In this document: piece after piece, positions 4,598 to 24,481 of the stretch
Position numbering within the stretch: position 1 is the first letter of the stretch
Layout of the letters: every line of letters starts with the position of its first letter
Source of the DNA: a virus
Taxonomy: Duplodnaviria; Caudoviricetes
DNA: 64,000 nt
Strand: one strand, 5' to 3'
IMG/VR virus record: IMGVR_UViG_3300017909_004705
Notes under the pieces: generated by a model
Database searches by the model: none
What the model was told of the DNA's origin: nothing
The model's input: the letters and a program-made list of their open reading frames with translations, nothing else
Program-made: the position numbers and the translations under genes

Positions 4598-4913
4598 CAC
4601 TTGGGTACAGCTCACACGAGATTTCGTTAGAGAGTGGCCGGAGGTTTTGGAAGGCTTACAATTCCAGAACATGCCGGTCAAGTACCTAGATTATATTAAT
4701 CTTAATCTAAAAAATAATGTCACAATTAGATATGACATTAAAAAAGAGTTGAAAACAAAAAAGCAAGGCATTATTGCTAGAGTTCTAAAAAAAACAATCG
4801 AAGATCATTACGTTAGAATAAAAAACGTTGATTTAAAATTTAATGTTCCAGCACTTAAATGTGATATGGAAAACAAGACAAGAAATATTTTATCAAAGAC
4901 TTTTCGAAAGTAG
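4569..4913 (+). CDS. Hypothetical basic protein
   Basis: In-frame ATG 4569 (MPKRQPPK) of track ORF 4491..4913; start uncertain. Confidence 0.65.
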   Translation: MPKRQPPKNSTWVQLTRDFVREWPEVLEGLQFQNMPVKYLDYINLNLKNNVTIRYDIKKELKTKKQGIIARVLKKTIEDHYVRIKNVDLKFNVPALKCDMENKTRNILSKTFRK

Positions 4914-5762
4914 GTCTAAATTTTTTGCCACTTCAATGGCATTGTCTACATCTGATAGGGGTTTTCTTTTTTCCCTTACACAATCAACAAATTCAATAAG
5001 TTCGTTGCGGAGAGGATTTGATTCTATGTCAAATTGTTCGATAGTTGGCTCATAATTCATTCTATCTTCGTTCCAAATGTTGGTAGTAAGTTTGATAGTT
5101 TTCTTTTCTTCGTCCCAGAATATCATTCCTTTAGTTCCAACTATTGCTGTTGTTCTAACTTTTTCTGGATAGTACCAACTAAGATTGAATTTTATTGGAG
5201 TGCCATTACAAGTGAAAGAGAACTCGTCCCTATCATTTTGGACCTTACCACTGTATTTGTGTCCGCTGTGTTTGATGTTTTGGAACTCATAAGTGCCCAA
5301 CCAATAGTGTATTATGCTGACATCATGTGGTGCTAGGCTGTGTACTGTGCTTATCTTTGTTTGGAACCTACCCCAGTTGAGCCTGTTCATTTCTATGTGT
5401 TGCACTTCTCCTATTTGTGGTAGTAGTTCTTTAATTTTATGTACCCTATCATTGTAAAGGAAGATGTGTCCTACCATCAATGTCTGTTCACGCAGAAAAC
5501 TTTTTATTATGCAACACTCTGTACAGGTCAAAGAAAGTGGTTTCTCGACATAAACGTTTTTGCCTTGTTGCAGTAGTCTAATGGTCTGTGTGTGGTGATC
5601 CCAAGCAGGCGTGGCCAGTATCACGTTGTCATACTTAATGTCCTTTAAATCCTTGCCATCTTTGATATCAATTATTTCTATCTCTTCTACTCCCGGTATT
5701 GTTTCCAATTCCGCTTTCAACTTTGATCCCCAATATCCTGCACCTACTAAACTAATTTGCAT
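4893..5762 (-). CDS. Gfo/Idh/MocA NAD-dependent oxidoreductase (WbpB/WlbA-like sugar dehydrogenase)
   Basis: GAGYWG Rossmann motif, VEKPL, LAPHD. Confidence 0.9.
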   Translation of the reverse strand: MQISLVGAGYWGSKLKAELETIPGVEEIEIIDIKDGKDLKDIKYDNVILATPAWDHHTQTIRLLQQGKNVYVEKPLSLTCTECCIIKSFLREQTLMVGHIFLYNDRVHKIKELLPQIGEVQHIEMNRLNWGRFQTKISTVHSLAPHDVSIIHYWLGTYEFQNIKHSGHKYSGKVQNDRDEFSFTCNGTPIKFNLSWYYPEKVRTTAIVGTKGMIFWDEEKKTIKLTTNIWNEDRMNYEPTIEQFDIESNPLRNELIEFVDCVREKRKPLSDVDNAIEVAKNLDLLSKSL

Positions 5763-6846
5763 AAAAGTCCTTTATTGCTTTTATAATGTAATCCTGGTGA
5801 TGCTCGGGTAATGTATGATAGCAAGGCAAACTTAATATGTTATTGCAAATATATTCTGTTCTAGGCAAAACAGTGCCATTATCAAAAGCATTTGTTTTGT
5901 GCGTTGGAAATTTGTAGTGTATGTTAGTCTGTATTCCTTTTTGTTTTAAAAAAGATTGCAATTTATCACGTGTACCCTCAGGCGTTTCAATGACATAAAC
6001 ATAATATGAATGTTTTGACCAAGGTGCTTCCTTTGGACATTTCACAATATCATTAAGTTCTTTGGTATATTTCCTACACACAGACCTTTTCTTGTCCAAC
6101 CAACTATCTATCTTAGAAAGTTTGGCTGTAACAATCACTGCCTGTAAGTTGTCAATCCTTGCGTTGTAACCTACCTTGTCGTACTCGAACTTTGTTTTCC
6201 TTCCATGATCCCTATACATTTTAACTTTATCGATCAATTCTTTGCTACCTGTGACTGCACCTGCATCTCCCATGGCGCCTAAATTTTTTACAGGATTGAA
6301 ACTGAAACAAGTCAAGTCCACGAGACTGCCGACCTTCTTTCCTTTGTATTCGGAACCAAAACTCTGAGCGGCATCTTCTATTACTTTCAAATTAAATTTT
6401 TTTGCGAACTCATTTATCTTATCAATATCAGGCGTTTGACCATAAAGATCAACAAACATGATGGCCTTTAATGTGTCGGTAAGTTGTAGTTTATTAACGT
6501 CAAGATGATAGAAATCATCTATGTCAACAAAGACAGGTGACGCACCAACATTTACAATCGATTCTGTTGTTGAAACAAAAGTGTGACCCACCGTCATTAC
6601 CTGATGTCCAGGTCCGATGTCTAGAGCCCTCAAGGCACAAGTCAGTGCATTGGTGCCTGATCCGATACTAGCACAATCCTCAGCGCCTGTGTAATCACAG
6701 ATTGCTCTTTCAAAATTGTCCACAGTTGGCCCTGTTATAAAATCTGACCTAAGGATTATATCCTTGATCGCCATGTCTATCTCTGTTTGCAGTTCCTCGT
6801 ATTGAGGATAAAGATCAACAAACGGTATTTTGATATCGTTGCTCAT
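5752..6846 (-). CDS. DegT/DnrJ/EryC1/StrS PLP sugar aminotransferase
   Basis: IPFVDL, SGTNAL, EDAAQS, SFNPVKNLGAMGDAG (PLP lysine). Confidence 0.95.
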   Translation of the reverse strand: MSNDIKIPFVDLYPQYEELQTEIDMAIKDIILRSDFITGPTVDNFERAICDYTGAEDCASIGSGTNALTCALRALDIGPGHQVMTVGHTFVSTTESIVNVGASPVFVDIDDFYHLDVNKLQLTDTLKAIMFVDLYGQTPDIDKINEFAKKFNLKVIEDAAQSFGSEYKGKKVGSLVDLTCFSFNPVKNLGAMGDAGAVTGSKELIDKVKMYRDHGRKTKFEYDKVGYNARIDNLQAVIVTAKLSKIDSWLDKKRSVCRKYTKELNDIVKCPKEAPWSKHSYYVYVIETPEGTRDKLQSFLKQKGIQTNIHYKFPTHKTNAFDNGTVLPRTEYICNNILSLPCYHTLPEHHQDYIIKAIKDFYAN

Positions 6847-8131
6847 AATTCTGTTTTAGCCATTCGAAGTTGTATGAATTCATAAGTTGTTGATAATTGT
6901 CTTTGTTTTCATCATAGAACTTTTTTGCATCTGTGGCACCTTTATGTACCCAATCTGCATTGTTTCCTGAACCCATCGTGAGCCATTTCTTTAACCTATA
7001 TTTTCCTTCTACTGTTGGTTTTGCCTGTAATAATTTTATGACTTCTCTAAATGCTGTTCTCCATGCCAACCACGGTGTTTGATTAAAATGATTGATGGCA
7101 CTGAGTATTGGGACCACTTCGTGAGGTGCTGATAGGGTAAAGTCTAGACCAGGGTTTGTAGTTTTCATTACAAGGCCTTTGTTGTATAACAACACTGCTC
7201 CATGACCATACTCCAGTCCATTCACAGGATTCTTGCAGTGAAATATGTAGTGGCAAGGATTTTTCAGCCTATCTGGTTGAAAATCAAATTTAAAACTATC
7301 AACTATTTCTAATTTCGGAAACACTGCAAAAAAGTAATCTGTTTCACTCATTGACGCCGCGGCCATGTATGCCAGTGTTTGTCCTATTATGTCTTTTGCC
7401 CATTTGGCCCTAGGAAAACGTTTTTTCAATTCCTTGTATCTTTTTTCTGCACTTGGTTCATCATAAGATATAAAAATTATATCCATAGGCTTAGATTCAT
7501 ATTCTAAGTCATAATGCACTATTCTCTCTATGTCATAGAACTGTTTGATGTGCTCTTTGTGTGGTACCAACATTATGTCGTTTGTTTTACCCCAAGTGTA
7601 AAGTTTAACATCCTCCCAAAAACTTGGAAAAAAGTTTGGTATTGTTTTTGGATCTAGGTCTTTGTTGTGTAACCATGTATAATAATTAGGATCATTTTTC
7701 AAATATTCATAAGGGTCTTTCAGTTTGAAACTTTTTTTTGGTATCCAGTTTTGGAATAGGTTACTGTGTGCATGATAATTTATATCCTTAAAATCTCTTA
7801 AAAATTTTAAATTGTGTATTTGTTTTTTAAGTTCTTTAGTTGGTATTAAAAAAACATTGCCTTCTTTATTTGTCCCACCTAGGGGGTGTGTGTTGTACCA
7901 GACATGTATCTGTTTCTGTTCATGTTGTTCAGGAATATAATCTAAATCAACAGTTTTTAGATTCATAAAATTTGCAAAAAACCAGAAGTACTCTGTTTTG
8001 ACGTCATCTATTATAGACTTCAACACAGTAAGATAACTGTCCACGAATGGTACCACTCTTGTATCTGCAAATGGTGACGCAATGTGCTTTGTGTGTTTAA
8101 ATTTTACCTGTATACTTTCGAATCCAGTCAT
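6815..8131 (-). CDS. Glycosyltransferase-like protein; C-terminal domain paralogous to 20420..21319 but lacking DxD
   Basis: DIIFISYDEP...SETDYFF...NPVNGLEYG...AWRTAFRE aligns with the 299-aa paralog. Confidence 0.55.
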   Translation of the reverse strand: MTGFESIQVKFKHTKHIASPFADTRVVPFVDSYLTVLKSIIDDVKTEYFWFFANFMNLKTVDLDYIPEQHEQKQIHVWYNTHPLGGTNKEGNVFLIPTKELKKQIHNLKFLRDFKDINYHAHSNLFQNWIPKKSFKLKDPYEYLKNDPNYYTWLHNKDLDPKTIPNFFPSFWEDVKLYTWGKTNDIMLVPHKEHIKQFYDIERIVHYDLEYESKPMDIIFISYDEPSAEKRYKELKKRFPRAKWAKDIIGQTLAYMAAASMSETDYFFAVFPKLEIVDSFKFDFQPDRLKNPCHYIFHCKNPVNGLEYGHGAVLLYNKGLVMKTTNPGLDFTLSAPHEVVPILSAINHFNQTPWLAWRTAFREVIKLLQAKPTVEGKYRLKKWLTMGSGNNADWVHKGATDAKKFYDENKDNYQQLMNSYNFEWLKQNYEQRYQNTVC

Positions 8132-9056
8132 AATAACTTTCTAATCCTTGTCTTAGGGTAAATTGTGGTTGATAATCTAAAAGGTCTTTAGCCCTGCTTA
8201 TATCTAAAGTGCCTCGCATGGGATATAGTTTATGCATTCCTATATCTTTGATTTCAGATTGACTGCCTGTTATATCAATAATTGTTTCTGCAAGTGTCCT
8301 TAGGCTAGTGGCATTGCCTGCCGTTATGTTGAAACTAGTGTTGGCAACTTCAGAATTTGCCGCTTTAATTATACCATAGGCGGCATCCTGCCTGTACGTA
8401 AAGTCAACTCTGTTTTCACCATTGTGCAAGTGAATTTCTTCATTTTTCATTGCTTTGTCAAAAAACTTTGACACAACTCTGTCTGGAAGGTCTCCAGGAC
8501 CAAATACTCCACTGGGCCTTACAATGACATAGTTGAGTCCATCTCTCTTGGCAAATAACTTTGTGAGCCTTTCACCTGTCAATTTGGCCTCGCCGTAGAT
8601 GTTCTGTGGTTTAGTACTTGCTTCTTCTCTTGTTCCGTCAACAAAATCACCGTACACCATGCTACTACTGATGTACACAAATTTTTTCGTATTCCATTTA
8701 GCGGCATGCCATAACAAGTTTGTTGTTGTGTCAATTACTTTTGGAATGCCATTTATAGGATCTTCGTCTACTATTTTTGCTCTTGGATATGTCGCCATAT
8801 GTATCACTGTGTCTGGATTGGTTTTGAAGGCTCTAAGGCAAACCAGTCTGTCTAACACATCACCATGGATTATCTGTACATTTTCCTTCTTCCAATTTCT
8901 AGTTCTCCATTCAATCAGTTTATCAAGTGCTGACGGAGTAATAATATCGTAAGTGTCTTTGTTATCCACACATACAACTCTGTGTCCGTCGTTGGACAGT
9001 TTCTCTATTATCTTTGTGCCTATAAATCCTAATCCACCTGTAATCAAATATTTCAT
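8097..9056 (-). CDS. NAD-dependent nucleotide-sugar epimerase/dehydratase
   Basis: TGGLGFIG, SSSMVYG, YGEAK (YxxxK). Confidence 0.93.
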   Translation of the reverse strand: MKYLITGGLGFIGTKIIEKLSNDGHRVVCVDNKDTYDIITPSALDKLIEWRTRNWKKENVQIIHGDVLDRLVCLRAFKTNPDTVIHMATYPRAKIVDEDPINGIPKVIDTTTNLLWHAAKWNTKKFVYISSSMVYGDFVDGTREEASTKPQNIYGEAKLTGERLTKLFAKRDGLNYVIVRPSGVFGPGDLPDRVVSKFFDKAMKNEEIHLHNGENRVDFTYRQDAAYGIIKAANSEVANTSFNITAGNATSLRTLAETIIDITGSQSEIKDIGMHKLYPMRGTLDISRAKDLLDYQPQFTLRQGLESYYDWIRKYTGKI

Positions 9057-10519
9057 TATAGTACTTTCACTCCGTATTTCGCCGTCCAGTCTTTACCATC
9101 TTTGGTGTCATTTACCATAGGCATACCCTTAATGTTCAAACTGGTGTTTAATAATATTGGGCAACCTGTCTCTTTCTTCCATGCTTTTAGCAGTTCATAA
9201 AACCCTTCATTGTCGCTTTTTGACACGGTTTGCACCCTAGATGTGCCATCATAGTGCAATATGGCAGGACAGTCTTTACCATGCGTGTACGCCGCTGTAT
9301 ATTGCATATAAGGGGTGTTTTTAACGCCGGTAGGGAGGTCAAAATAGTCGTTTACGTCCTCTTCTAATATGGCCGGAGCGAACGGTCTAAACTTCTGTCT
9401 TTTCTTGATTGCGTTTACCAAATCCTTGATGTCCTCACCCCTAGGGTCTGCCAATAACGATCTATTACCAAGTGCCCGCGGGCCAAACTCTGCTCTACCA
9501 TTTGCAACTCCCACCATCTTGTTTTCTTTCAATTCTTTTATTATCGAGTCCACAGGATACTCACCTTCTATATTATGACCCAGGAATGGACTCTTCCAAT
9601 TAATAAATGATTTTTGGTGTGCGGCTATGCAACCTAGACTTGATCCTGCATCACCTGGGTTTGGAATTATCCAGATGTTGTCAAATAGTCCTAGGTTTGC
9701 AAGTACCTTGTTGGCCGCACAGTTAAGTGCTACTCCGCCGGCATACACCAAATTACGTGATCCATACCTACTTGCCCTGTGCCATAGATCTGCAAGGCAC
9801 TCTTCCGTCACTGCCTGTATACTGGCCGCAAGGTCCATTGGATCTGCTTCCGGATGCCACTCGCTTAACCCCCTGTGTAGATTTTGCTTCAACTTAAATG
9901 GAGACTGATACACAAAGTCATTGTATATGTCTTCTTTGTATTTTGGCTCACCGTATGCGGCCATGCCCATTAAAATGTATTCTTCTTCCGCAGGCTTCAG
10001 TCCACAACGATGTGTAAATGCACTGTAAAGTATTCCTATGCTGTGCGGATACTTGATTGTTTCCTTCCTTTCAATCCATATTTTTTCCGCAGTGGATATT
10101 GACACTGTATCCCATTCACCAATTGCGTCGACTGTTAGTATTGTTGCCTCTCTGAAAGGCGATGTAAAATATCCTGCCGCGGCGTGAGAGTCATGATGTT
10201 TCACGTACTCGTCGATCTTGATGTTGAAATTGTCTAGATGCCATTGTGGCAATTCTGTATGACTTAATGCATCTGACCATTGTCCTGCGTAAAGTTGCCG
10301 TGTTTTTTTCAGCCAAGGCTTTTCATAATAAACAACTTTGTCGAAAGGACCATATGTCATTGCCTCATTTACTATTTGCCAATTAAGATAGTGATCGTTT
10401 TTGACCTTTGAATAGCGTTCTGCGTGTGCGGCCCATAAAACCTCACCTATGCCAGAACTGTAATCTACCACTGACATGGCGGCATCATGATTCATACAAT
10501 TAATTCCTAGTATCTTCAT
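9056..10519 (-). CDS. Carbamoyltransferase (NodU/CmcH/TobZ family)
   Basis: HHDSHAA, GGVALNC, PGDAGSSLG, EFGPRALGNRS, FRPFAP, LNTSLN. Confidence 0.95.
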   Translation of the reverse strand: MKILGINCMNHDAAMSVVDYSSGIGEVLWAAHAERYSKVKNDHYLNWQIVNEAMTYGPFDKVVYYEKPWLKKTRQLYAGQWSDALSHTELPQWHLDNFNIKIDEYVKHHDSHAAAGYFTSPFREATILTVDAIGEWDTVSISTAEKIWIERKETIKYPHSIGILYSAFTHRCGLKPAEEEYILMGMAAYGEPKYKEDIYNDFVYQSPFKLKQNLHRGLSEWHPEADPMDLAASIQAVTEECLADLWHRASRYGSRNLVYAGGVALNCAANKVLANLGLFDNIWIIPNPGDAGSSLGCIAAHQKSFINWKSPFLGHNIEGEYPVDSIIKELKENKMVGVANGRAEFGPRALGNRSLLADPRGEDIKDLVNAIKKRQKFRPFAPAILEEDVNDYFDLPTGVKNTPYMQYTAAYTHGKDCPAILHYDGTSRVQTVSKSDNEGFYELLKAWKKETGCPILLNTSLNIKGMPMVNDTKDGKDWTAKYGVKVL

Positions 10520-10664
10520 CTTCCTCCTTGTGCCAACCCCTGTCCTCGATATTGTTGCCTTTGCATTTAGGACATGCCCAACCCTCTTCCGAGTCGTCCT
10601 GTATTAGATCCTGTGGTGCCCCACGCCACTGACAGCCATAGCAATACCAGTTCCACCAGGCCAT
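10500..10664 (-). CDS. Small zinc-ribbon/rubredoxin-like CxxC...CxxC protein
   Basis: WYCYGCQW...WACPKCKG; ATG 10664 follows the trxB stop. Confidence 0.6.
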   Translation of the reverse strand: MAWWNWYCYGCQWRGAPQDLIQDDSEEGWACPKCKGNNIEDRGWHKEEDEDTRN

Positions 10665-10665
10665 C

Positions 10666-11607
10666 CTATTTTGTCTCTTGTCCTGCAAGATATTTCTCTG
10701 CTTCCAGGGCCGCCATGCAACCCATTCCGGCGGCTGTCACCGCCTGCCTATAAGTTTTATCTTTTACGTCACCAGCGGCATAAACTCCTTCTACGCTAGT
10801 AAGAGTTGAATCAGGTTTTGTAATTATGTAATTCTCATTGTCCATCTCTACTTGGCCTTTGAATATGCCTGTGGCTGGATCATGCCCTATTGCAATGAAT
10901 ACTCCATCTATTTTCTTTTCAGTGATAGATCCATCCACTGTGCTTTTAAGTTTCACACCAGTAACGTTATTTGGATTCTCATCTCCCACTATTTCTTCAA
11001 TCTGGCTGTTCCAAATACATTCGATCTTTTTGTGTGCAAATAACCTGTCCTGCAAAATTTTTTCTGCCCTTAATTTGTCTCTCCTATGCACAAGATAGAC
11101 TTTACTTGCCATTCCTGTGAGGTAAAGTGCTTCTTCAACTGCACTGTTTCCACCGCCAACCACTATGACCTCCTTGTCCTTAAAAAAGAATCCATCACAT
11201 GTTGCACAGGCAGAAACTCCGAATCCTGAAAATTTCTTTTCACTTTCTATTCCCAACCATCTTGCTTGGGCGCCTGTTGATATGATCACACTGTCGGCCG
11301 TGTATGTTTCTCCACTTTCCCCTACTGCGGTGAATGGTCTATTACTGAAATCAACTGATTTAATCATGTCTGTAATGATGTCTGTGCCAACACTTTTAGC
11401 CTGTTGCTCCATCTGTTGCATCAACCACGGCCCTTGTATTACATCACCAAATCCAGGATAGTTTTCCACGTCAGTTGTTATTGTCAATTGTCCTCCTGGT
11501 TGCATACCCTGTACCAACGTTGGCTTCAGCATCGCCCTTGCTGTGTATATGGCCGCGGTATAACCAGCGGGACCTGATCCAATAATTAAAACTTTTGAAT
11601 GTTTCAT
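10666..11607 (-). CDS. trxB: Thioredoxin-disulfide reductase
   Basis: IIGSGPAG, GGQL...VENYPG, SACATCDG (CxxC), VGGGNSA, AAGDV...RQAVTAAG; start set at the ATGA overlap 11607. Confidence 0.95.
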   Translation of the reverse strand: MKHSKVLIIGSGPAGYTAAIYTARAMLKPTLVQGMQPGGQLTITTDVENYPGFGDVIQGPWLMQQMEQQAKSVGTDIITDMIKSVDFSNRPFTAVGESGETYTADSVIISTGAQARWLGIESEKKFSGFGVSACATCDGFFFKDKEVIVVGGGNSAVEEALYLTGMASKVYLVHRRDKLRAEKILQDRLFAHKKIECIWNSQIEEIVGDENPNNVTGVKLKSTVDGSITEKKIDGVFIAIGHDPATGIFKGQVEMDNENYIITKPDSTLTSVEGVYAAGDVKDKTYRQAVTAAGMGCMAALEAEKYLAGQETK

Positions 11608-12281
11608 TTTACTTTCAAGAATCCTTTCGCTTTTACTAAAGCAGTCTCCCAATCTTCCAATGTCATGTCATATTCAAAATTTTGCGAAGTTTCGTTTACC
11701 TGTAATTCTTTAGCACCATTTTTAGTATGGAAATTCCTTGCCATTTTAGTCAACGGTGAAAGTGTAACCAATCGATTTAGATGATTTGATTTTTTGATTC
11801 TCTTGTACACTTCATTTATTATTGCACGTCCTCCGCCTTTTTTCTTTGCCCAAACTGTGTAAGCCACTGCAATCGACCCTTGCACTCCTGCCCTGTTACT
11901 GGACCTGATTGCGGAATCATAACTAAATTTTTCTAGTTCTTCAACGGTCTTTGGTACCTCATCCGTAAAAGCAAAACAAATGATGGCAGAGATGTCACCT
12001 TCGTCATCTCGCAATCCTAGTATTTTTCTACCATATGTTTGTCTGAATACTAAATCTAGTTCAGGACGGACTGGATCTTCTGTGACGTCAATATATGGAA
12101 GTTCTACAAGTGTATACTTTGATTCTTTTATTTTTTGTTTTGTGTATGCTTCTAAACTTTTATAATTTTTATTTGTGTAACTTTGTAACTTTGAAAATTT
12201 TTCCAATAGTCCGGTGACCGAAGGATGCTCTTTCCATCGTTCCAAAACCTCTTTCAGTTTTTCTTTATTAAGTATTTCCAT
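11604..12281 (-). CDS. Putative GNAT-fold protein
   Basis: KKKGGGRAII (motif A-like) and ARNFHTKNGA (motif B-like). Confidence 0.5.
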   Translation of the reverse strand: MEILNKEKLKEVLERWKEHPSVTGLLEKFSKLQSYTNKNYKSLEAYTKQKIKESKYTLVELPYIDVTEDPVRPELDLVFRQTYGRKILGLRDDEGDISAIICFAFTDEVPKTVEELEKFSYDSAIRSSNRAGVQGSIAVAYTVWAKKKGGGRAIINEVYKRIKKSNHLNRLVTLSPLTKMARNFHTKNGAKELQVNETSQNFEYDMTLEDWETALVKAKGFLKVK

Positions 12282-12283
12282 TT

Positions 12284-12388
12284 TTATTTGTAAATGAATG
12301 GATCTTTCTTCTTAAGTTCTTTCACTCTTTTTCTATAGGCTATTTCTTGTTTGAATTTAAGCCAAAGATTTTTTATCCATTTAAACAT
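12284..12388 (-). CDS. 34-aa basic peptide ending DPFIYK (not in ORF track)
   Basis: MFKWIKNLWLKFKQEIAYRKRVKELKKKDPFIYK*; AGGAG SD; fills the gap exactly; paralog at 13045..13161. Confidence 0.8.
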   Translation of the reverse strand: MFKWIKNLWLKFKQEIAYRKRVKELKKKDPFIYK

Positions 12389-13058
12389 GATTTGTCTCCT
12401 TTCTAAAAACATATGTTGTTAATCCGCCGTTCCTCCAGTTCCATAATATTCCTGGATGACTGTCTACGAATTTATAATCCATAAACATCTTTTTTACATC
12501 TCTACTGTAAAAACTTAATTCGTAAGGATGTTGTTCCTGATCTATTTCTAGGGTTTGAGTAGCATAATCATTTGGCAATAACTTTTGCAACCTCTTGCCC
12601 CATGGATGATAAAGACCTATTATGAACATACCACCGTTGTGTAGCATGTTTTGTAACCTTGCTAAAGTCTGCATGTAATCAGGTATGTGATGCAACACGC
12701 CCTGGCATATGATTGTATCGAAACCATCATGTGTTTCAAACCTTGTAAGATCTTCTTTTATGAATTTAAGATTAGGCCTGTTCAGTTCTTCTTTTATTTT
12801 CACTGCATAATTTATACTATCTGCAAAATCTACTCCGGTAAAGTTTTTGGTAGGATAGGTTTGTGCAAGATAGTTCACCATGAAACCTGTGCCACAACCT
12901 GCGTCGAGGACAGTACGGCTATGCATTATACTGTTTGATATGAAAGCAATATAACGATTTTGCCCTGCATAGGTCTTAACAGACTGAGCAGTGTAAGGAC
13001 CTGGAAAAGGATGTTTATTATAAAAACCTTTTACCTGATCGCTTTTATTTGTATTCAT
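12381..13058 (-). CDS. Class I SAM-dependent methyltransferase
   Basis: VLDAGCGTG, GVD, FDTIICQGVLHH. Confidence 0.92.
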   Translation of the reverse strand: MNTNKSDQVKGFYNKHPFPGPYTAQSVKTYAGQNRYIAFISNSIMHSRTVLDAGCGTGFMVNYLAQTYPTKNFTGVDFADSINYAVKIKEELNRPNLKFIKEDLTRFETHDGFDTIICQGVLHHIPDYMQTLARLQNMLHNGGMFIIGLYHPWGKRLQKLLPNDYATQTLEIDQEQHPYELSFYSRDVKKMFMDYKFVDSHPGILWNWRNGGLTTYVFRKETNHV

Positions 13059-16463: not shown

Positions 16464-17733
16464 ACAACTCCTTTAATTCAGGAAACACTTCTGTAATGTT
16501 TTCATTTCTTATCACATCTAATTTTTGCATACTGTCTTTAAATTGTTGCAGGTCCTTTGAATTATCTCTCCTCATCATGTAGTCTAGTCCAGACTCGAAG
16601 CCTTTTGTTGCACGAGTTAGATGATCTTTTGGACGTAACCACTCCAAGTGTTTTTCATATTTTTCTTTTACTTTCAGTTTGTATGAATCAGGCAACAGAT
16701 CTATCCTTTGTGGATATGGATACTGCAAAAGATTAAAATTAAAATCTTGTGGTTTAAGTAGTCCTTGATCAACCCAATTCCTATGGAAGTCAGGTATATG
16801 TAAGGCATTGATTAATCCTACTGTTGAACTGATGTAGAAATCAACTTGTGGACAAACTTCCAACATCCTTTTCCTGTTTGCAACAATGTCTTCCCATACT
16901 GTACCTTTACGCATTAATTCTCCACGTTTGCCTTCAGCATCTAGGCTGGCACCTATAGATACTGAATCAAATTTATTCCATAATTCTAAAACATCAATGT
17001 CCTTGTATTTTGTCCTTGTAAAATTAGTATTGTAAATTAGTCTCACATGATACATTTTTCTTTTATCTAATTCTTTCAATATCCTGTAGTGTTCTTCCAT
17101 TATAATTGGCTCACCACCAGCAAAATAAAATTGTTCCACATGTTCAAACTGATCTAACATCTGTTCCCATATGTCATTGCTACTTCTTCCAACTTTCATT
17201 ACCTTGGCGTGATTAGGCGGAGCACCAGTGAGTTTTTTGTGATCTTCGTACCAATTCGAACTAAACCATGTGCCGCAACTTCTACATGCTAGGTTACAAA
17301 GGTTACTGAACCTTATGTCCCAATATTTGATTACAAAATCTGCTTCACCTTCTGGTGTGGTGTTGTCCACCATGCCTATGTTATGCCCAAAATGTTTGTT
17401 AGAACTCAAACGCAAACTGAAAAAACCAGATTTTTCCTGGTCATAACATTTTCCACAATGTTTGCTCGCCTTGTTTGACAGCATATTTTTTCTTATGCCT
17501 TTCATGGTATCATTGTTGAACACTTCCGCCATGCTATTTTTATTAAGGTCACCAACAGGATATTTGTCCAAAGCAAAACAACACGGATACGCCCTGCCGT
17601 CCGGAAACGCATGTATGTGCAACCAAGGCATCATGCAGAAAGTTTCACTGTCGATCAACAACTCCTTTTGGCGAGGAGTCATGTCCTTAATCTTTAACTT
17701 CTCGGGCTCCTTGGCCCCGTAATCATATGCCAC
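16453..17733 (-). CDS. Radical SAM protein with N-terminal twitch-like domain (#3)
   Basis: CMMPWLH...PCC...CGKC; CNLACRSC; FAGGEP. Confidence 0.93.
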   Translation of the reverse strand: MAYDYGAKEPEKLKIKDMTPRQKELLIDSETFCMMPWLHIHAFPDGRAYPCCFALDKYPVGDLNKNSMAEVFNNDTMKGIRKNMLSNKASKHCGKCYDQEKSGFFSLRLSSNKHFGHNIGMVDNTTPEGEADFVIKYWDIRFSNLCNLACRSCGTWFSSNWYEDHKKLTGAPPNHAKVMKVGRSSNDIWEQMLDQFEHVEQFYFAGGEPIIMEEHYRILKELDKRKMYHVRLIYNTNFTRTKYKDIDVLELWNKFDSVSIGASLDAEGKRGELMRKGTVWEDIVANRKRMLEVCPQVDFYISSTVGLINALHIPDFHRNWVDQGLLKPQDFNFNLLQYPYPQRIDLLPDSYKLKVKEKYEKHLEWLRPKDHLTRATKGFESGLDYMMRRDNSKDLQQFKDSMQKLDVIRNENITEVFPELKELYAG

Positions 17734-19066
17734 GGTACCATTCTCCTATGATTGGGAAAGTCTTTTCAAAGTCCTTTCCTGTTCGTTTGTCGTATTGGCT
17801 ATAAAACGCCTTGAAATCTTTTTGCAGTTTGCTTTGTTCGGCCGCTCCTGCGTGTGGTGTTTTTACAACATCAAGGTAGTCAATCAGCCTTTGTGTTTGA
17901 TTGATTTCCATGTGTTCTAAATACTTTTCGTTACTATTTAAAAACTTTACCAAGTCCAATTTAAATTTATTTCTTAGGTCGTCTGGTAGGACAAGCGGTG
18001 ATTGGAAACTAGGAAACCTCAAAATATTAAGTGTGTAATTTATTGTCGGACCGTACACCTTACTTGCATTTTTAAACCATACAATTTTCTCTAAAAACTC
18101 CGGCAATGATTCAAGGCACAATGCATTTATTGTTGCCATGTTGTGTATTTCAGATGGCACCTTATCTACCATCATATGTAAAACTTGGCTATGCCAATCA
18201 CCATAATTTAATCCATCTCTGATGTATTCAGCCTGCCCAAACGTTGCTTCACAACTAGTGTATAAGTGAAAATTTTTAAAGTTTTTTAATTTTGTTTTAA
18301 ATCTATCAATAATACTTTGCTTCGCTCCTAAATTAGAATTGATTGCGATACGCATGTTTGGATTCATTTTATCACCTTGCGTTTCAATCCAATCTAACAA
18401 TCGCCATAAGTTTGGTGACATCATTGGCTCACCACCCGTGATTCTAAGTTCATCTAAACTCTTGTGCAGGTCAGTTTCCCACCATTTGTAAAATGCTTCT
18501 ACATAAGGATTGGTTTCATCTTTCTTGTATGGTTCTGCACTCTCATGACTGTGAGTATAATGGTTTCTTCCGTCTGACGTGAGTCCTGTGTATGGTCCTT
18601 GTTGTTTTATATTGTTTGCCCATGTAGAACTAAATGCAGGATTGCAATAGGTACAGGCAAACTGACAGGTCCTGTCAAATGCTATTTCTAAAGTTTTAAG
18701 ATTCCAATCAATGTTATGGTCTGATCTGTGTGCCTCATCTAAGGCCGCATCTGAAAATATTCTTGATTTATAAACCCTATCACTGATTGCGTCCCTGCCT
18801 ATGTCTTCTATCTTCCAGCAGTATTCACAACCTGCAGGCCTTTCGCCACACTGCATTTGCCTACGTTGTTCTTTCTTTTGTTTTGTGTTGTGGATTGCAC
18901 TTGGATTTTTCTTAATTTCTTCGAGATCAATCTTATGCGGCAATGGGTGGTGGCAACTTGTGGTCATTCCTGATCCCAACCATATTGTTGCATTGAACCA
19001 TTTGGCTCCACAGAAACTGGCACTCTTTGTATCTAGTATTTTTTTCTTGTATTCTAAATCGTTCAT
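17723..19066 (-). CDS. Radical SAM protein with N-terminal twitch-like domain (#4)
   Basis: CGAKW...SCHHP...CEYCW; CQFACTYC; ITGGEP; start set at the ATGA overlap 19066. Confidence 0.93.
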   Translation of the reverse strand: MNDLEYKKKILDTKSASFCGAKWFNATIWLGSGMTTSCHHPLPHKIDLEEIKKNPSAIHNTKQKKEQRRQMQCGERPAGCEYCWKIEDIGRDAISDRVYKSRIFSDAALDEAHRSDHNIDWNLKTLEIAFDRTCQFACTYCNPAFSSTWANNIKQQGPYTGLTSDGRNHYTHSHESAEPYKKDETNPYVEAFYKWWETDLHKSLDELRITGGEPMMSPNLWRLLDWIETQGDKMNPNMRIAINSNLGAKQSIIDRFKTKLKNFKNFHLYTSCEATFGQAEYIRDGLNYGDWHSQVLHMMVDKVPSEIHNMATINALCLESLPEFLEKIVWFKNASKVYGPTINYTLNILRFPSFQSPLVLPDDLRNKFKLDLVKFLNSNEKYLEHMEINQTQRLIDYLDVVKTPHAGAAEQSKLQKDFKAFYSQYDKRTGKDFEKTFPIIGEWYRGI

Positions 19067-20433
19067 GCCGATCTGCACTCCTCCCAGAATTCTTCCATCT
19101 CAGGAAATGTGTTCAAGAACCTTGTCAAACGTCTGCGGTCGTGTTCATTAAAAAAAGCGTAAAAGTTTTTTTTATTTTGCGTACTTGCGTCCGCGTTTTC
19201 GCGCCAGTATGCGAGGTTCCTCTGCATCTTCTGGATCTCAAAGTCCTTGAATATGTGTAGGCCATTCTCTTCGCCGGCGTTGTTCTGCATGTATTCTATG
19301 TTGGCCTCGTGTATTGCCTGATAACTCTCTGGTAACATCGTTATCTGTTGCCAGGCAGGTTGTCTTAGAAGTGGCACGTCGAACCATACCCTCTGGTATG
19401 TCTTGCTGTAGGCCTTCCTAAGGTCTATTATCTTCTGCAACAGTTTGTCCATGCTGGTGATACTGAGGTTGTTGTAGGTGCATATGAAGGTTATGCTGTT
19501 ACGACTAGGAATCCTGTCCAAGAACTCCTCGACATTGTCCATCATGTAGTTGAAGTCCAAACCGTCACGTATGTATTCCGCACGTTTGCCCCATGCGTCC
19601 ACACTGACAAATTGCATCATGTGTTCAACTTTCTTCTGCATACATATCTCCTGGGCCATGTTGAAGTACTTCTCTTTTAGTTTCTTGTCTGGCGGACACA
19701 TGTTGCTGGTAACATTGAGGTGAAGGTCATCCTTGGGATGGTCTATGATGTACTGGAAGACCTTGTACGTGTTCTTGTCCATCATTGGCTCTCCTCCGGT
19801 CATGCGGAAGTGTTTAAGGTTGTTGTACAGCGTGGGCCACCATTTCCAGAACGCCGTCACGTAGGGATTTTCCTCCCTGTGTGGTATGGGCCTTCTACTG
19901 CCCTGGAAGTGCTCTGGAGCGTTGTGGGGTGGAGATGTTGGATATTGGCCATACCTTTCGATCTCCTTGCCCCACGTTGTTGAGAACTGTGGAGAACAAT
20001 AACTGCACTTGAAGTTACAAGCGTTGTTGAAGTTAACCTCCACGTACCTCGGTGTCCAACTTGTCGTCATTGGATTCTGTCTAATCTGCTCGAAGTCCTG
20101 CATGGCCCATGGCTCACCGGAACGGTAGTGCCTGTCTGACATCTCTCCCGTGTCCTCCATCTTCCAGCAGTACGAACATCCATCGGGACGTTCGCCTCGT
20201 AGCATCTTGAATCTTTGGTCCAGTTTTTCAACTGTGTTGTGCAGTGCCGCTGGATTCTTCTCCAGTTGCCTTGCGTCTATTTTGTGCAATGGTGGGTGGT
20301 AGCACGAATTGGTCATCCCTGTGGGCAGGTGCAGTGAGGTCTGATTCCACTTCGCCAGGCACATCGTGGGAGACACTGTGTTCAATTTCTCCCTGGCCTT
20401 AAGTGCGTCTGCTTTGTAATCACTTGTACTCAC
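19063..20433 (-). CDS. Radical SAM protein with N-terminal twitch-like domain (#5)
   Basis: CLAKW...SCYHP...CSYCW; CNFKCSYC; MTGGEP; probable GTG start at 20433 behind AGGAG. Confidence 0.92.
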   Translation of the reverse strand: MSTSDYKADALKAREKLNTVSPTMCLAKWNQTSLHLPTGMTNSCYHPPLHKIDARQLEKNPAALHNTVEKLDQRFKMLRGERPDGCSYCWKMEDTGEMSDRHYRSGEPWAMQDFEQIRQNPMTTSWTPRYVEVNFNNACNFKCSYCSPQFSTTWGKEIERYGQYPTSPPHNAPEHFQGSRRPIPHREENPYVTAFWKWWPTLYNNLKHFRMTGGEPMMDKNTYKVFQYIIDHPKDDLHLNVTSNMCPPDKKLKEKYFNMAQEICMQKKVEHMMQFVSVDAWGKRAEYIRDGLDFNYMMDNVEEFLDRIPSRNSITFICTYNNLSITSMDKLLQKIIDLRKAYSKTYQRVWFDVPLLRQPAWQQITMLPESYQAIHEANIEYMQNNAGEENGLHIFKDFEIQKMQRNLAYWRENADASTQNKKNFYAFFNEHDRRRLTRFLNTFPEMEEFWEECRSA

Positions 20434-21319
20434 GGTCTTGCACTCCTGTGTTTTTGTGTGGTGGATAGATGTATTTGATGAACCTGCTCTGGTACTCGTC
20501 CAGTTCGGCCACGGGCAGGTCAATCCTCTGTCTTATGCTTTCTCCATACAGTCTTAGATCCTCGTCGATGTTATCTGGTTTCACTGAATTCTCATATAGG
20601 TCGATCATCTTGTCGAGATCCCTAACCTGTATCCATTCGTTGGAGTCCACTGTGGTGCTGTAGCAACCCATCCTTGCCCCCAGCATTGCATACTTGCCAT
20701 TGTCCACATCGGCTCCCACTGTCATCCATGTGCTGAGTATCCTCAAGTTAGGACCCCATATCTTTTTCATAAATTCGTCTGGTCGGATGTGTTCACCCTG
20801 GTTGAGACTCATCTTGACTCCTTCCCTATATCCTGCTATCCAGGCCTGGAAAGGTTCACTGTTGATCACACTCGTTGAATAACAGTTGTGCAAGTTTTCA
20901 TGCTTCACTGTCCAGCAAAAATCTATCTCCGCTTTTTTGTCTTTTGCATTTTCATGTGTGTGCATGTTAAGGCAAGTTTCTTTGTCCCAGCCAACCAATC
21001 CGCCATTTCCATACACCAGTCCATTGATTATGTTCTTTGCCCGCCACCTGTGTACTGCTTTCCTGTCTGTCTTTTCGAAGTCCAGTGTCTGTAAAAGGAA
21101 TCGTTCGTCGATGATGTTGTCACCATCAACACTTATGAAGAAATCGGTCTCTGAAATTTCTGCCGCGGCCTTGTGTGCAGAATCAAAACCTTTTACACCG
21201 TCAACACGTTTTGCCCATGGAACCTTGTTTTTTAGGTCAGCCCAATTTTCTTCTTTGTTGGGTTCCATGTAACTGATGTAAACAAAATCTAGGTCTGTTA
21301 CTCGGATTTTATCTGCCAT
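20420..21319 (-). CDS. Putative GT-A fold glycosyltransferase
   Basis: DFVYISYMEP start; ISVDGDN DxD motif after a hydrophobic strand. Confidence 0.65.
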   Translation of the reverse strand: MADKIRVTDLDFVYISYMEPNKEENWADLKNKVPWAKRVDGVKGFDSAHKAAAEISETDFFISVDGDNIIDERFLLQTLDFEKTDRKAVHRWRAKNIINGLVYGNGGLVGWDKETCLNMHTHENAKDKKAEIDFCWTVKHENLHNCYSTSVINSEPFQAWIAGYREGVKMSLNQGEHIRPDEFMKKIWGPNLRILSTWMTVGADVDNGKYAMLGARMGCYSTTVDSNEWIQVRDLDKMIDLYENSVKPDNIDEDLRLYGESIRQRIDLPVAELDEYQSRFIKYIYPPHKNTGVQDREYK

Positions 21320-21600
21320 TGGTATCCTTTCTCTGCCACGTCCTCTATCCAGTATGGATCACCTTCATGGAAATGTGCTCCAACATCTGCCTTAACCAAT
21401 ACTTTGCACTTGACTTTAGTTTTTTTTCTTGGTCTGAGAACTATGTTTCCATCTTTGAGCATGAATGCTGACTCCCCAGAACGCATTATCTCCAATTTCT
21501 TTTCAAGGCTTACTTCTATGCTCTGTCCATCTACGGTGACCATGTGCCTCTTTTTCTTTGGCGGCGGCATGTCTGCAAGTGCTCTAAGAAGTGGATCCAT
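21298..21600 (-). CDS. Hypothetical protein
   Basis: 100-aa ORF overlapping its neighbours in the operon. Confidence 0.7.
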   Translation of the reverse strand: MDPLLRALADMPPPKKKRHMVTVDGQSIEVSLEKKLEIMRSGESAFMLKDGNIVLRPRKKTKVKCKVLVKADVGAHFHEGDPYWIEDVAEKGYQWQIKSE

Positions 21601-22384
21601 TCAATTCTCCTACTAATTTCTTGTTGTGATAATGCACTATCCTGCTTTGCCTATAGCCTCCCATGTATAGTCTGTGTCCCACCTTGAGAGGGTAAAGGAA
21701 ATTGTCGTTGTCGAATTGCTGTCCTATGCCATTGATGTGCTGTTTGTTGTGCATGAACTTGAACCATTCATAATCAATTTTGCCATTTTGTAAAGGATCC
21801 TGTATTTTGTTTGCCAATGCATACACCACATCTGTGGTAGGCTGTTCGTCATGGCAGTTCACAAGTACTTTTTCTTTTACAGTCTTCCAATCTTTTATTA
21901 TAGTTTCACAGATGTCATAGAACTGTTTTGCCTTGACGCTCCTTCTAAAATAATGTAGACCATTGTACACATCAGGCAATCTGTTTCTCTCAAACAACTT
22001 CCTATAGAAACTGCTTACTATTACCCTGTCCTGATAGTTCCTACAATTATATGAGAACACTTGATCATGTTGCCAAAGGAAATTCCACCACCAGTCTGTG
22101 TTTTGTGTGAACAACATGTCCGCCTCAAGTTTGATTGTGTGAGTGAACGGTGTCAATGCAAACACCTTGTATTCATTGTTTAGTTTCCATTCCTGTCCTG
22201 CACTGTCATCTTCTTTGAGAACTTTGACAAAATCAAACAGTTCATCCTCCAGAGGTTTGTCAGTGATCACGCAAACCTTGTTATGCCGATTTACTTCCTT
22301 GATACTTTTGGCCAGTGTTCTGCTGAGTGCAACATAGTCCGTGGTTGAGTTGTTCAACGCAAACCAAACATATCCCCTATCCAT
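21584..22384 (-). CDS. Putative glycosyltransferase (GT8/GT-A-like)
   Basis: TPFTHTIKLEADML (ExD), YNGLHYF, C-terminal VHYH. Confidence 0.7.
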   Translation of the reverse strand: MDRGYVWFALNNSTTDYVALSRTLAKSIKEVNRHNKVCVITDKPLEDELFDFVKVLKEDDSAGQEWKLNNEYKVFALTPFTHTIKLEADMLFTQNTDWWWNFLWQHDQVFSYNCRNYQDRVIVSSFYRKLFERNRLPDVYNGLHYFRRSVKAKQFYDICETIIKDWKTVKEKVLVNCHDEQPTTDVVYALANKIQDPLQNGKIDYEWFKFMHNKQHINGIGQQFDNDNFLYPLKVGHRLYMGGYRQSRIVHYHNKKLVGELNGSTS

Positions 22385-23129
22385 TGCACCACTCCTTGTC
22401 CATTATGTGTACGTCCAATCCAGATGTTAAATTGACTTTGTTGCCGTGTTTGAAAATTATACCATCGTCATCACTGTCCAGAACGTCAACGCTGTCAGCC
22501 AACATGCTCATAGGCGTTGGTATCCTATCTCCCAGGTTCAACTGATGCAGTGCTATTGCGAACGCATAGTCATTCCTGTAATTCTCATAACGAATCCTGT
22601 AAAGGTTCTTGTAGTGTGTATAATACTGTTGCACGTGTTTGATCAATTCAAATATCTGTTTAGTTTTCTCTGTTTTACGGAATAGAGTCACCGTCGCCCA
22701 AACCAAAGGCAGAGTGCTTTCATCCTTGCCCTCTATCATGTTTTGCCCTGTGAGATCCTTAACACGATCATGCAACATCATGTCAAATTTAGTATTTGCA
22801 AGTTCAAGTAGAGTTGAAGAGAAAACAAAGTAGTCACAGTCCATCAGTATGGTTGTGTCGTAGGGAGAATGTTCGTATGCAAGAGCACGTTCTTTGTTGT
22901 ACCATGCAACATTTTTTCCCCTGTATGTTCTCTTATTTGTTGTCTTTGCGTCCACCAACTTATAGTTGATCATGCCCATAGGTTTGAATTTCTTAAATGT
23001 CTCTAAATTTGTTACTATCGTAATTTCTAGTTGTAGATACTTTTTGATTTGTGCCACACAACGCTCAGCCAACTTGTGATATTGTGTGTCAGGATTGTCG
23101 AAACAATATATTAGGACCCCAGTCGTCAT
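22377..23129 (-). CDS. Putative glycosyltransferase (GT8/GT-A-like), paralog of 21584..22384
   Basis: SPYDTTILMDCDY (DxD), RNDYAFAIAL, DVHIMDK. Confidence 0.7.
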   Translation of the reverse strand: MTTGVLIYCFDNPDTQYHKLAERCVAQIKKYLQLEITIVTNLETFKKFKPMGMINYKLVDAKTTNKRTYRGKNVAWYNKERALAYEHSPYDTTILMDCDYFVFSSTLLELANTKFDMMLHDRVKDLTGQNMIEGKDESTLPLVWATVTLFRKTEKTKQIFELIKHVQQYYTHYKNLYRIRYENYRNDYAFAIALHQLNLGDRIPTPMSMLADSVDVLDSDDDGIIFKHGNKVNLTSGLDVHIMDKEWCNG

Positions 23130-23446
23130 TATCTTCCCTTAGTTGAGAGATCTTGATGCAGTCGGTGATATGCGTTCAGTGTTTCCTGGTTCCTTTGTAT
23201 CAATCTTCGTAGGAAATCATCCGGGTCTTGTATGTGACAAGGATTGTCGTTCACGTCCAACACAAAAAAATCTTTGTTATGTTGCTTCATTGTGCTTACA
23301 AGATTTATGGTGTCAGCGTTAGCCTTAAAAAGCCTTTCGTTGTAAGCCATCAACTGTCGAGAACGCATCTTTTCCAGTGCGTTGTCCTTAGCCTGTGCGA
23401 CTTCAAAGTTAAGGTCCGAGTGTTTCTTAATATTGCCAATATCCAT
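23129..23446 (-). CDS. Hypothetical protein, first gene of the enzyme operon
   Basis: 105-aa ORF immediately downstream of a promoter. Confidence 0.75.
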   Translation of the reverse strand: MDIGNIKKHSDLNFEVAQAKDNALEKMRSRQLMAYNERLFKANADTINLVSTMKQHNKDFFVLDVNDNPCHIQDPDDFLRRLIQRNQETLNAYHRLHQDLSTKGR

Positions 23447-23447
23447 A

Positions 23448-23483
23448 TAACTGTATTATACAGTTAATTATTGCTGAATGCAA
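23448..23483 (-). promoter_or_regulatory. Sigma70-type promoter with an overlapping perfect inverted repeat (candidate operator)
   Basis: Minus strand TTGCAT(23483-23478), 17 nt, TATAAT(23460-23455); IR TAACTGTAT-n-ATACAGTTA at 23448-23466. Confidence 0.7.
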
Positions 23484-24477: not shown

Positions 24478-24481
24478 AATT

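Follow-up and report, generated by a model that had tools for sequence, protein, structure and literature searches.

We analysed a 64,000-nucleotide stretch of the IMG/VR viral record IMGVR_UViG_3300017909_004705 (the window) and, within it, an operon that encodes glycosyltransferase-like proteins, five radical S-adenosylmethionine (radical SAM) enzymes, a carbamoyltransferase and nucleotide-sugar enzymes. The operon comprises 22 co-oriented open reading frames (ORFs) on the minus strand, from 23446 to 4893, of which 19 encode at least 100 amino acids (aa) and the others 34, 38 and 54 aa. All junctions between the 22 genes fall within −35 to +2 nucleotides (nt), and the first gap wider than 2 nt is a 53-nt spacer upstream of the first gene, in agreement with the original prediction, made from this DNA, of about 21 packed, co-oriented genes on one transcript. 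That prediction also placed the operon beside the tail module, and the upstream genes (23500–26107 and beyond) are indeed tail-fibre or virion-protein paralogues in PHROG comparisons. No operon protein contains a membrane segment.

Positions 1–63298 of the window are the reverse strand of a 91,069-bp IMG/VR viral contig of 26% estimated completeness; the final 702 bases (63299–64000) are not part of that contig. The baseplate wedge protein (46232–49720) is ~35% identical to its counterparts in the giant myophages Phosso, Atu_ph07 and GAP32, and related contigs reach 342–361 kb at 92–100% estimated completeness, with terminal repeats in one. Thus, the window derives from an uncultured giant marine myophage that belongs to a clade of about 350 kb. 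A megablast search with the window matched no cultured phage. Marine metagenomes are rich in close homologues, with 6,541 proteins at E ≤ 1e-5 for one radical SAM enzyme alone.

A promoter occupies positions 23449–23483 on the minus strand, with a −35 element TTGCAT (23483–23478), a 17-nt spacer and a −10 element TATAAT (23460–23455) preceded by TG; here 8 nt separate the −10 element from the ATG of the first gene. The same site was present in 30 of 36 distinct relatives as TTTACCAGGTTGAnn-N17-TATAAT, 6–8 bases ahead of the ATG, and we accepted the promoter on this footprint rather than on a generic promoter scan, which performed at chance (57 sites compared to 53.5 expected), as did a terminator scan. 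The single sigma70-type promoter proposed earlier is therefore upheld. Because the −10 element ends only 6–8 nt before the start codon, the mRNA of the first gene may be leaderless. A perfect palindrome, AACTGTAT-A-ATACAGTT (23465–23449), overlaps the −10 element; its letters vary among relatives (ACCAtAATTA...TAATTgTGGT elsewhere) and its symmetry is retained. It resembles an operator for a dimeric regulator.

Two promoter classes are present in the window. The motif of the operon promoter also stands ahead of an ATPase gene at 326–354, as TTTACCAGGTTGAcg-N17-TATAAT (early type), whereas T4-late-type boxes, TATAAATA, precede baseplate or structural genes at 49743 and 55534. The operon is under its own early-type control, with read-through from the tail-fibre genes possible. 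The linkage to the tail module thus stands as a matter of position and may not be regulatory, because the operon promoter is of the sigma70/early type, unlike the late boxes of the tail genes.

The first genes of the operon encode glycosyltransferase (GT)-like proteins and two small proteins. The first, u105 (23129–23446, 105 aa), has no family match and occurs in 53 related loci. The second, gtA (22377–23129), encodes a protein with a predicted GT-A fold in the shape of retaining GT6/GT8/GT24 enzymes: its model has a pLDDT of 91, the top Foldseek matches are all GT-A enzymes (alpha3GalT, LgtC, UGGT and GlyE) at E about 1e-6, albeit with TM scores of only 0.45–0.51, and its DxD motif (D97-C-D99) is invariant at both aspartates across 13 sequences. 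Its paralogue gtB (21584–22384; hhalign 96.7%) has E-A-D in place of DxD. After u100 (21298–21600), a 100-aa protein that diverges strongly between relatives, gtC (20420–21319) combines an N-terminal nucleotide-diphospho-sugar-transferase-like domain, which carries an invariant D65-G-D67 motif, with a helical C-terminal half (model pLDDT 74). The C-terminal half of a distal protein, u438 (6815–8131, 438 aa), is homologous to gtC (99.2%) and lacks a DxD motif. Both gtC and u438 matched nucleotide-diphospho-sugar transferase folds at Z 6–7 and E 0.02–0.1, in lists where glycosyltransferases are mixed with nucleotidyltransferases of the cytidylyl-, thymidylyl- and MobA types and where PBCV-1 A64R is among the weak matches; in a protein atlas, gtC had only a weak 0.87 lead, to GT2. 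By its modelled fold, gtC could therefore be a glycosyltransferase or a nucleotidyltransferase. Pfam and NCBIfam searches gave no curated GT-family match for gtA, gtB, gtC or u438, and PDB profile searches with gtA and gtC returned nothing significant. Four GT-A-like proteins had been proposed; gtA by its fold and gtB by homology fit that description, but gtC and u438 are only nucleotide-sugar-transferase-like.

Downstream of gtC lies an array of five radical SAM genes, all of which scored well above the curated cut-off of 170 bits for NF033640 (N_Twi_rSAM, twitch domain-containing radical SAM protein): rS1 (19063–20433, 328 bits), rS2 (17723–19078, 293 bits), rS3 (16453–17733, 413 bits), rS4 (15117–16463, 314 bits) and rS5 (13954–15132, 374 bits). 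Five radical SAM enzymes had been predicted, and all five belong to this N-terminal-twitch family. Two further window proteins also exceed the cut-off and share with the array enzymes the CxxxCxxC motif and an N-terminal four-cysteine domain. In an alignment of the seven paralogues, C146, C150 and C153 (CxxxCxxC) as well as C33, C93 and C96 are invariant, and a cysteine at site 51/52 is present in six, the exception being the protein encoded at 59617–60699. Pfam placed a SPASM domain N-terminal to Radical_SAM in three of the five array proteins. Each of rS1 to rS5 is a separate orthologue kept in 62–69 loci; rS4 exists as three allele classes, and rS5 co-varies with the neighbouring SGNH-like gene. 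The two additional N-twitch genes of the window, among 59617–60699 (plus strand), 61510–62520 (minus strand) and 62510–63193 (minus strand), adjoin gp47/gp46-like recombination nuclease genes (56608–59604) and a gene for a SegE-type GIY-YIG homing endonuclease.

We found no characterised member of NF033640 and no paper on the family, so that membership assigns no function. Complete relatives of this phage carry 5–21 matches to the model, scattered over the genome. The cellular N-twitch radical SAM genes examined lie in unrelated or mobile contexts and were uninformative as clues to function: the Bdellovibrionales example is an integrase/relaxase island with four tandem radical SAM genes, and the neighbours in Agaribacillus are LiaF, a two-component system and TerB. 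Twitch-domain enzymes of the BtrN type oxidise, epimerise or otherwise edit sugars, and by analogy the radical SAM enzymes of the operon may do the same.

The genes between the array and the distal end encode further candidate modifying enzymes, for which the strength of assignment differs. The 267-aa SGNH-like protein (13158–13961) is identified solely by S11, G53, N56 and H248 (blocks I, II, III and V), which are invariant in nine sequences; it had no Pfam match and none of significance in the PDB, the best being a GDSL protein at E 0.4. The 225-aa GNAT-like protein (11604–12281, in 35 loci) has only a KKKGGG stretch resembling motif A and a match to the C-terminal part of malonyl-CoA decarboxylase at E 0.086, and family scans and a PDB profile search gave nothing significant. 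Thus, the motif residues behind the SGNH and GNAT proposals are present, but neither protein has a significant family or PDB match. Family scans did confirm the other enzymes that had been named. These are a class I SAM-dependent methyltransferase (12381–13058), TrxB (10666–11607; thioredoxin-disulfide reductase with a CATC motif, TIGR01292 at 425 bits compared to a cut-off of 343), a carbamoyltransferase of the NodU/CmcH/TobZ family (9056–10519), an extended short-chain dehydrogenase/reductase (SDR) of the nucleoside diphosphate (NDP)-sugar epimerase/dehydratase type (8097–9056), a DegT/PseC/LegC-type sugar aminotransferase (5752–6846) and, as the last gene, a Gfo/Idh/MocA oxidoreductase (4893–5762), which overlaps a convergent plus-strand ORF by 21 nt (4893–4913). 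One nt after TrxB is a gene for a 54-aa CxxC...CPxC protein (10500–10664) that resembles zinc ribbons or rubredoxins and had weak zinc-ribbon matches.

The carbamoyltransferase contains both the Kae1-like N-terminal and the YrdC-like C-terminal domains (PF02543, 143 bits; PF16861, 180 bits) and is far below the NodU equivalog cut-off (148 compared to 1000 bits). To our knowledge, members of this family, HypF apart, act on hydroxyls of sugars or antibiotics. The genes for the Gfo/Idh/MocA and DegT proteins are adjacent, with an 11-nt overlap, as expected for the WbpB/WbpE-type pair that had been suggested, but neither protein matched at the equivalog level: the best models for the DegT protein were PseC and LegC, both below cut-off (DegT family 324 bits; PseC 230 bits, cut-off 423), and the Gfo/Idh/MocA protein scored 85 bits against the UDP-GlcNAc 3-dehydrogenase model, for which the cut-off is 450.

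The original gene list, confirmed elsewhere to varying degrees, missed a conserved peptide gene that is present here in two copies. The first copy, mic1 (12284–12388), lies between the methyltransferase and GNAT-like genes and encodes a basic 34-aa peptide ending in KKKDPFIYK; the second, mic2 (13045–13161), lies directly upstream of the methyltransferase gene and encodes 38 aa ending in KDPYEYK. Members of the family combine an N-terminal half that is basic and amphipathic with an invariant DPFIYK end; W4, Y18, R19, D29, P30, Y33 and K34 are invariant in our alignment, and members were found in 64 related loci. Judged from this alignment, the peptide is under strong constraint and matches the enzymes in conservation. 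All four relatives that bear the methyltransferase have a second peptide copy directly upstream of it. The motifs DPFSYK in the baseplate hub and KDPYEY in u438 resemble the peptide tail; the former was taken as chance and the latter as coincidence, as it is not kept in homologues.

A degenerate-pattern scan of viral contigs matched at least 120 loci, at least 108 of which have a bona fide short basic ORF, with at least 85 distinct sequences. Among the matches listed, a carbamoyltransferase gene was downstream in 55 of the 74 loci with at least 2.5 kb of downstream sequence (within 1.3 kb in 47), whereas an N-twitch radical SAM gene was nearby in 21, and a GT-like gene in 19, of the 72 loci of at least 8 kb. 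On these counts, the primary linkage of the peptide is to the carbamoyltransferase. A fusion of the two by read-through or frameshifting was ruled out, as spacing and frame differ between loci, and leader-peptide attenuation is unlikely, given that the genes on both sides overlap or adjoin the peptide gene, with no space for a regulatory RNA.

The same pair is present in the cultured giant Ralstonia phage RsoM2USA, in a module formed by genes 199–203 and a peptide ORF, in the order SGNH-like gene, radical SAM gene (54% identical to rS2), second SGNH-like gene, peptide ORF, third SGNH-like gene and carbamoyltransferase gene (46% identical). The peptide is an unannotated 36-aa ORF ending in DPFIYK (MG752970.1, complement of about 125891–126001, between genes 201 and 200) and lies one gene upstream of the carbamoyltransferase. 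None of the GT-like families of the operon was detected in the 19.5-kb region around this module, and the paper on the phage says nothing about these genes. In one other lineage the peptide lies beside a primase, truncated and full carbamoyltransferases and 2-oxoglutarate (2OG)-Fe(II) oxygenases, and in another beside a prolyl-hydroxylase-like gene. In a lineage of small phages (L132, L137, L151 and L202), a DPFIYK gene is closely followed by a 112-aa gene and the gene for the large terminase, sometimes with a methyltransferase ahead of the peptide and with no carbamoyltransferase in view. No such peptide ORF was found near the carbamoyltransferase genes of S-CAM1, S-SSM7, HTVC008M and C48C1, and a tblastn search of phage records with the 34-aa peptide, too short a query, gave no match. 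Two of these loci have an evident sugar context: the carbamoyltransferase of S-CAM1 lies among heptose genes, a tail-fibre gene and the gene for an NDP-sugar epimerase, and that of HTVC008M near a glycosyltransferase, a methyltransferase and UDP-glucose dehydrogenase; the contexts in S-SSM7 and C48C1 are less telling.

Synteny across relatives, which had been suggested as a check, was strong for the core of the operon. Its order is common to about 65–69 IMG/VR viral loci and several contigs filed as metagenome-assembled genomes (MAGs), down to about 50% identity, and runs: tail-fibre-like gene, (u105), gtA, gtB, (u100), gtC, rS1, rS2, rS3, rS4/rS5, (SGNH-like), the 34-aa ORF, (GNAT-like), carbamoyltransferase. 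The carbamoyltransferase is kept in 54 loci. The distal end is variable, with the SDR in 44 loci, u438 in 42, the DegT protein in 34, the Gfo/Idh/MocA protein in 9 of 69, the four-cysteine protein in 7, the methyltransferase in 4 of 69 and TrxB in 3, the last two being rare accessories. The distal sugar genes and rS4 are exchanged as cassettes, as expected for a surface-exposed, diversifying glycan. The MAG contigs that carry the operon with tail-fibre genes (NHCU01000062, NHDJ01000025, NZIN01000062, PBLX01000002, and ctg1 and ctg3 of JBBAKG01) bear the bacterial labels TMED41, TMED56, MED606, Legionellales SP228 and Haliscomenobacter EUL_031 and are probably mis-binned phage DNA.

Another exchanged unit spans the operon promoter. 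Just upstream of it, on the minus strand, lies tf325 (23500–24477), which encodes a Ser/Thr/Gly-rich tail-fibre-like protein of 325 aa (Ser plus Thr 22%) that is present in 58 of 69 loci and has no family match of its own in Pfam or PHROG scans. This unit emerged when sequence identities to the window were compared in 54 distinct close relatives, a measure that uses one reference and in which loci are related and genes adjacent. The identities of tf325, u105, gtA and gtB co-vary (r 0.58–0.88; medians 47–54%); tf325 correlates with u105, gtA and gtB (r 0.58–0.77) and not with its other neighbour. The cassette from tf325 to gtB is uncorrelated with genes on both of its flanks, which instead track the backbone: tf541 co-varies with rS1, rS2 and the carbamoyltransferase (r 0.75–0.81; medians 73–85%). 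These patterns indicate that tf325, u105, gtA and gtB are a repeatedly exchanged unit; a biochemical link is not proven by this exchange. Co-variation of a fibre-like gene with two GT-A genes fits a virion acceptor.

The operon had been described as a largely self-contained pathway, a description that does not hold. In three relatives of 92–100% completeness, we found no sugar-1-phosphate nucleotidyltransferase of the NTP_transferase family (PF00483), no Bac_transf priming phosphoglycosyltransferase and no Wzx-type flippase. Self-containment also fails because the Gfo/Idh/MocA, DegT and SDR genes lie in the variable end and TrxB and the methyltransferase are so rarely present. As no PF00483 nucleotidyltransferase is present in the complete relatives, host NDP-sugars would have to be the starting material, and the lack of membrane segments, priming transferase and flippase implies that the acceptor, or substrate, should be cytoplasmic.

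We tentatively favour, at somewhat short of an even chance, a reading in which the operon tailors sugars in the host cytoplasm for attachment to an acceptor, most likely a virion protein. Host NDP-sugars such as UDP-GlcNAc would be the input, and in this phage the optional Gfo/Idh/MocA, DegT and SDR set would convert NDP-sugars to keto or amino sugars. Sugar would then be transferred to the acceptor by gtA and gtB, perhaps also by gtC and u438. The product would be edited by the conserved core, in which the five N-twitch radical SAM enzymes are joined by the SGNH-like protein, as an acyltransferase or esterase, and by the carbamoyltransferase, partnered by the 34-aa peptide. Methyl- and acyltransferases could add extras. 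TrxB and the small four-cysteine protein might feed electrons to the radical SAM clusters, a plausible arrangement in the few loci that have them. The first candidate acceptor would be the Ser/Thr-rich tf325, given that relatives exchange it along with gtA and gtB. On balance, the evidence points to sugar chemistry, based on the confident GT-A fold, the NDP-sugar enzymes, the carbamoyltransferase family, the sugar contexts of some of its phage homologues and the diversification of cassettes beside tail fibres.

Several points weigh against this proposal. We infer every chemical step, the roles of the radical SAM enzymes and the peptide, and the acceptor, and the assignments of gtC, u438 and the SGNH-like and GNAT-like proteins are weak. 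Co-regulation with virion assembly is not supported by the early-type class of the promoter. Physical linkage alone, or a host modification matched to the receptor, may explain why tf325 co-varies with gtA and gtB. Finally, the peptide–carbamoyltransferase pair often occurs without GT-like or N-twitch neighbours and, in RsoM2USA too, without GT-like genes, so that the core chemistry may not need glycosyl transfer.

The conserved peptide opens a rival reading, the most probable of the alternatives but one we consider unlikely: that the 34-aa peptide is itself the substrate or carrier, in the manner of a ribosomally synthesised and post-translationally modified peptide (RiPP) or scaffold, and that its DPFIYK end is carbamoylated, cross-linked or edited by radical SAM enzymes, methylated, acylated and glycosylated. 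In its broader form, to which we give a similarly low probability, many phage lineages of marine and soil origin would produce a peptide that is carbamoylated, edited by radical SAM enzymes and in some cases glycosylated, or a small molecule cut from the DPFIYK end. The cluster does hold a conserved precursor-like small ORF, the peptide matches the enzymes in conservation and recurs across lineages, and the close spacing to the carbamoyltransferase, the second copy ahead of every methyltransferase and the 2OG-Fe(II) and prolyl-hydroxylase-like neighbours elsewhere are all what a modified peptide would lead one to expect. The usual peptide maturases are twitch/SPASM radical SAM enzymes, mycofactocin is a precedent for the grouping of peptide, radical SAM enzyme, glycosyltransferase and methyltransferase, and HypF/HypE is a precedent for a carbamoyltransferase acting on a protein C-terminus. 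However, no RiPP recognition element (RRE)/PqqD-like domain, leader peptidase or exporter was found among the Pfam and NCBIfam matches of the cluster proteins, and the 'core' of the peptide is invariant and its 'leader' variable, the reverse of most RiPPs. Moreover, N-twitch radical SAM genes are near only 29% of the longer peptide loci among the matches listed, cellular N-twitch loci lack the peptide, and in the small-phage lineage, where the peptide precedes the terminase genes, a methyltransferase is the only tailoring enzyme. A peptide substrate also explains the DegT, Gfo/Idh/MocA and SDR proteins less well than sugar tailoring does.

A slightly less probable alternative keeps the sugar chemistry and changes the target: the enzymes would act on cytoplasmic lipid- or nucleotide-linked precursors of lipopolysaccharide (LPS) or capsule, altering the receptor and blocking superinfection. 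Remodelling of this kind has been proposed for GT8 and LPS genes beside tail fibres in the pelagimyophage host recognition cluster (Zaragoza-Solas et al., 2020; PMC7029224). The sigma70/early-type promoter is better suited to a role in the course of infection than to one in assembly, joint variation of tf325, gtA and gtB would also be expected if the phage masks the receptor of its own fibre, and enzymes with GT8-like folds such as LgtC act on lipooligosaccharide. Against it, neither the operon nor the complete relatives contain Gtr-type membrane proteins, a priming transferase, a flippase or a polymerase, serotype conversion profits a lytic giant phage less than a temperate one, and O-antigen modification offers no precedent for five radical SAM enzymes and a peptide.

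We also think it improbable that there is no single pathway at all and that the operon merely assembles independent cassettes into a mosaic, in which the glycosyltransferases and the fibre gene, the array of radical SAM genes, the peptide–carbamoyltransferase pair and the sugar-nucleotide genes share one transcript and act on different substrates. The separate blocks of co-variation (tf325 to gtB, rS5 with the SGNH-like gene, and the three allele classes of rS4) have this character, as do the occurrence of the peptide–carbamoyltransferase pair by itself in many phages, the scatter of N-twitch genes over complete relatives and beside recombination genes in the window, and dips in GC content to 0.356–0.363 at 6001–8000 and 12001–14000. 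A mosaic fits poorly with an order of gtA, gtB, gtC, rS1 to rS5, peptide and carbamoyltransferase that stays intact down to about 50% identity and with junctions that overlap throughout. Hypermodification of phage DNA, in which the operon would glycosylate and then tailor modified bases to evade restriction, is very improbable: the promoter is of the early type, all enzymes are soluble, a very basic peptide could bind DNA, and known thymidine hypermodification pathways employ pyridoxal phosphate (PLP) and radical SAM enzymes, but the one thymidylate-synthase-family gene of complete relatives (342–355 bits to PF00303) scores as expected of a canonical ThyA, the window shows no signature of a hydroxymethylase, a base kinase or a known DNA glycosyltransferase, the GT-A enzymes are similar to GT6/GT8/GT24 enzymes that act on proteins or glycans, and the operon is located by the tail fibres and exchanged along with a fibre-like gene.

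Some neighbouring features deserve mention. Amid the tail-fibre paralogues, a cassette at 26310–29402 contains genes for an SDR fragment (26764–27351), an Asp/Asn beta-hydroxylase (27317–27988) and a Gly-rich protein with a weak Hint-domain match (27981–29402), which suggests a separate, protein-level modification of fibre proteins. A single ORF of 4308 aa (33306–46232) lies between these paralogues and the baseplate wedge gene. At the far end of the operon, beyond short convergent plus-strand genes, two genes within 379–2729 are kept in relatives and encode a MoxR/CobS-like ATPase (PHROG 1297) and a 412-aa protein (phrog_1314, annotated as an HNH endonuclease).

There is a real chance that the chemistry of this proposed virus-encoded glycan tailoring is new. 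If an edited glycan coats tail fibres or other virion parts, abundant marine phages would have a new layer of control over host range and immunity evasion, and new radical sugar chemistry could be drawn from them. If instead the peptide is the substrate, these phages would harbour a new class of phage natural product and a widespread tailoring of phage peptides by N-twitch radical SAM enzymes. With the minimal version in the cultured phage RsoM2USA, the question can already be put to the test in the laboratory.

Descriptive literature already covers these classes of gene and their location beside tail fibres, and the radical SAM family has been catalogued; we came across no published account of the fixed core of the operon, its promoter, the peptide–carbamoyltransferase pair, the cassette of fibre and transferase genes or the RsoM2USA mini-module. 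The closest described counterpart is the hypervariable host recognition cluster beside the tail-fibre genes of T4-like pelagimyophages and cyanomyophages, in which GT8-type glycosyltransferases and LPS-type sugar genes are found with an Asp/Asn beta-hydroxylase and with radical SAM cassettes whose presence differs from one close relative to the next (Zaragoza-Solas et al., 2020; PMC7029224). Like that cluster, the region studied here is a variable island by tail fibres with glycosyltransferases and radical SAM cassettes; unlike our account of this operon, the published one is descriptive and defines no operon, N-twitch family, carbamoyltransferase–peptide pair or promoter (PMC7029224). The phages also differ: those with the cluster are T4-like, 130–250 kb in size and infect SAR11 or cyanobacteria, whereas this phage belongs to the ~350-kb clade with a baseplate nearest to those of Atu_ph07, Phosso and GAP32.

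Virus-encoded glycosylation of virions occurs on the capsid and tail tube of mycobacteriophages, in chlorovirus PBCV-1 through A64R and in the fibril sugars of Mimivirus. At the level of genes, the operon resembles these systems in its soluble viral GT-A enzymes encoded near structural genes, in amino-sugar enzymes like those of giant viruses and in a predicted cytoplasmic setting, and none of them is known to include an array of radical SAM enzymes, a carbamoyltransferase or a partner peptide. The carbamoyltransferase shares its two-domain architecture with NodU, NolO, CmcH and TobZ and with the 'Nol-like carbamoyltransferase' of cyanophages and pelagiphages, and some of its phage homologues, which are 29–46% identical, have sugar-gene contexts; unlike those enzymes, it has a 34-aa peptide as its partner in this phage, as in many others that are uncultured. 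Mycofactocin-type pathways likewise cluster a short aromatic-ended peptide with twitch/SPASM-type radical SAM enzymes, a glycosyltransferase and a methyltransferase. Unlike in those pathways, no RRE/PqqD-like protein, peptidase or MftD-like oxidase was found here, the radical SAM enzymes are of the N-terminal-twitch type, and the peptide is linked more closely to the carbamoyltransferase than to the radical SAM enzymes.

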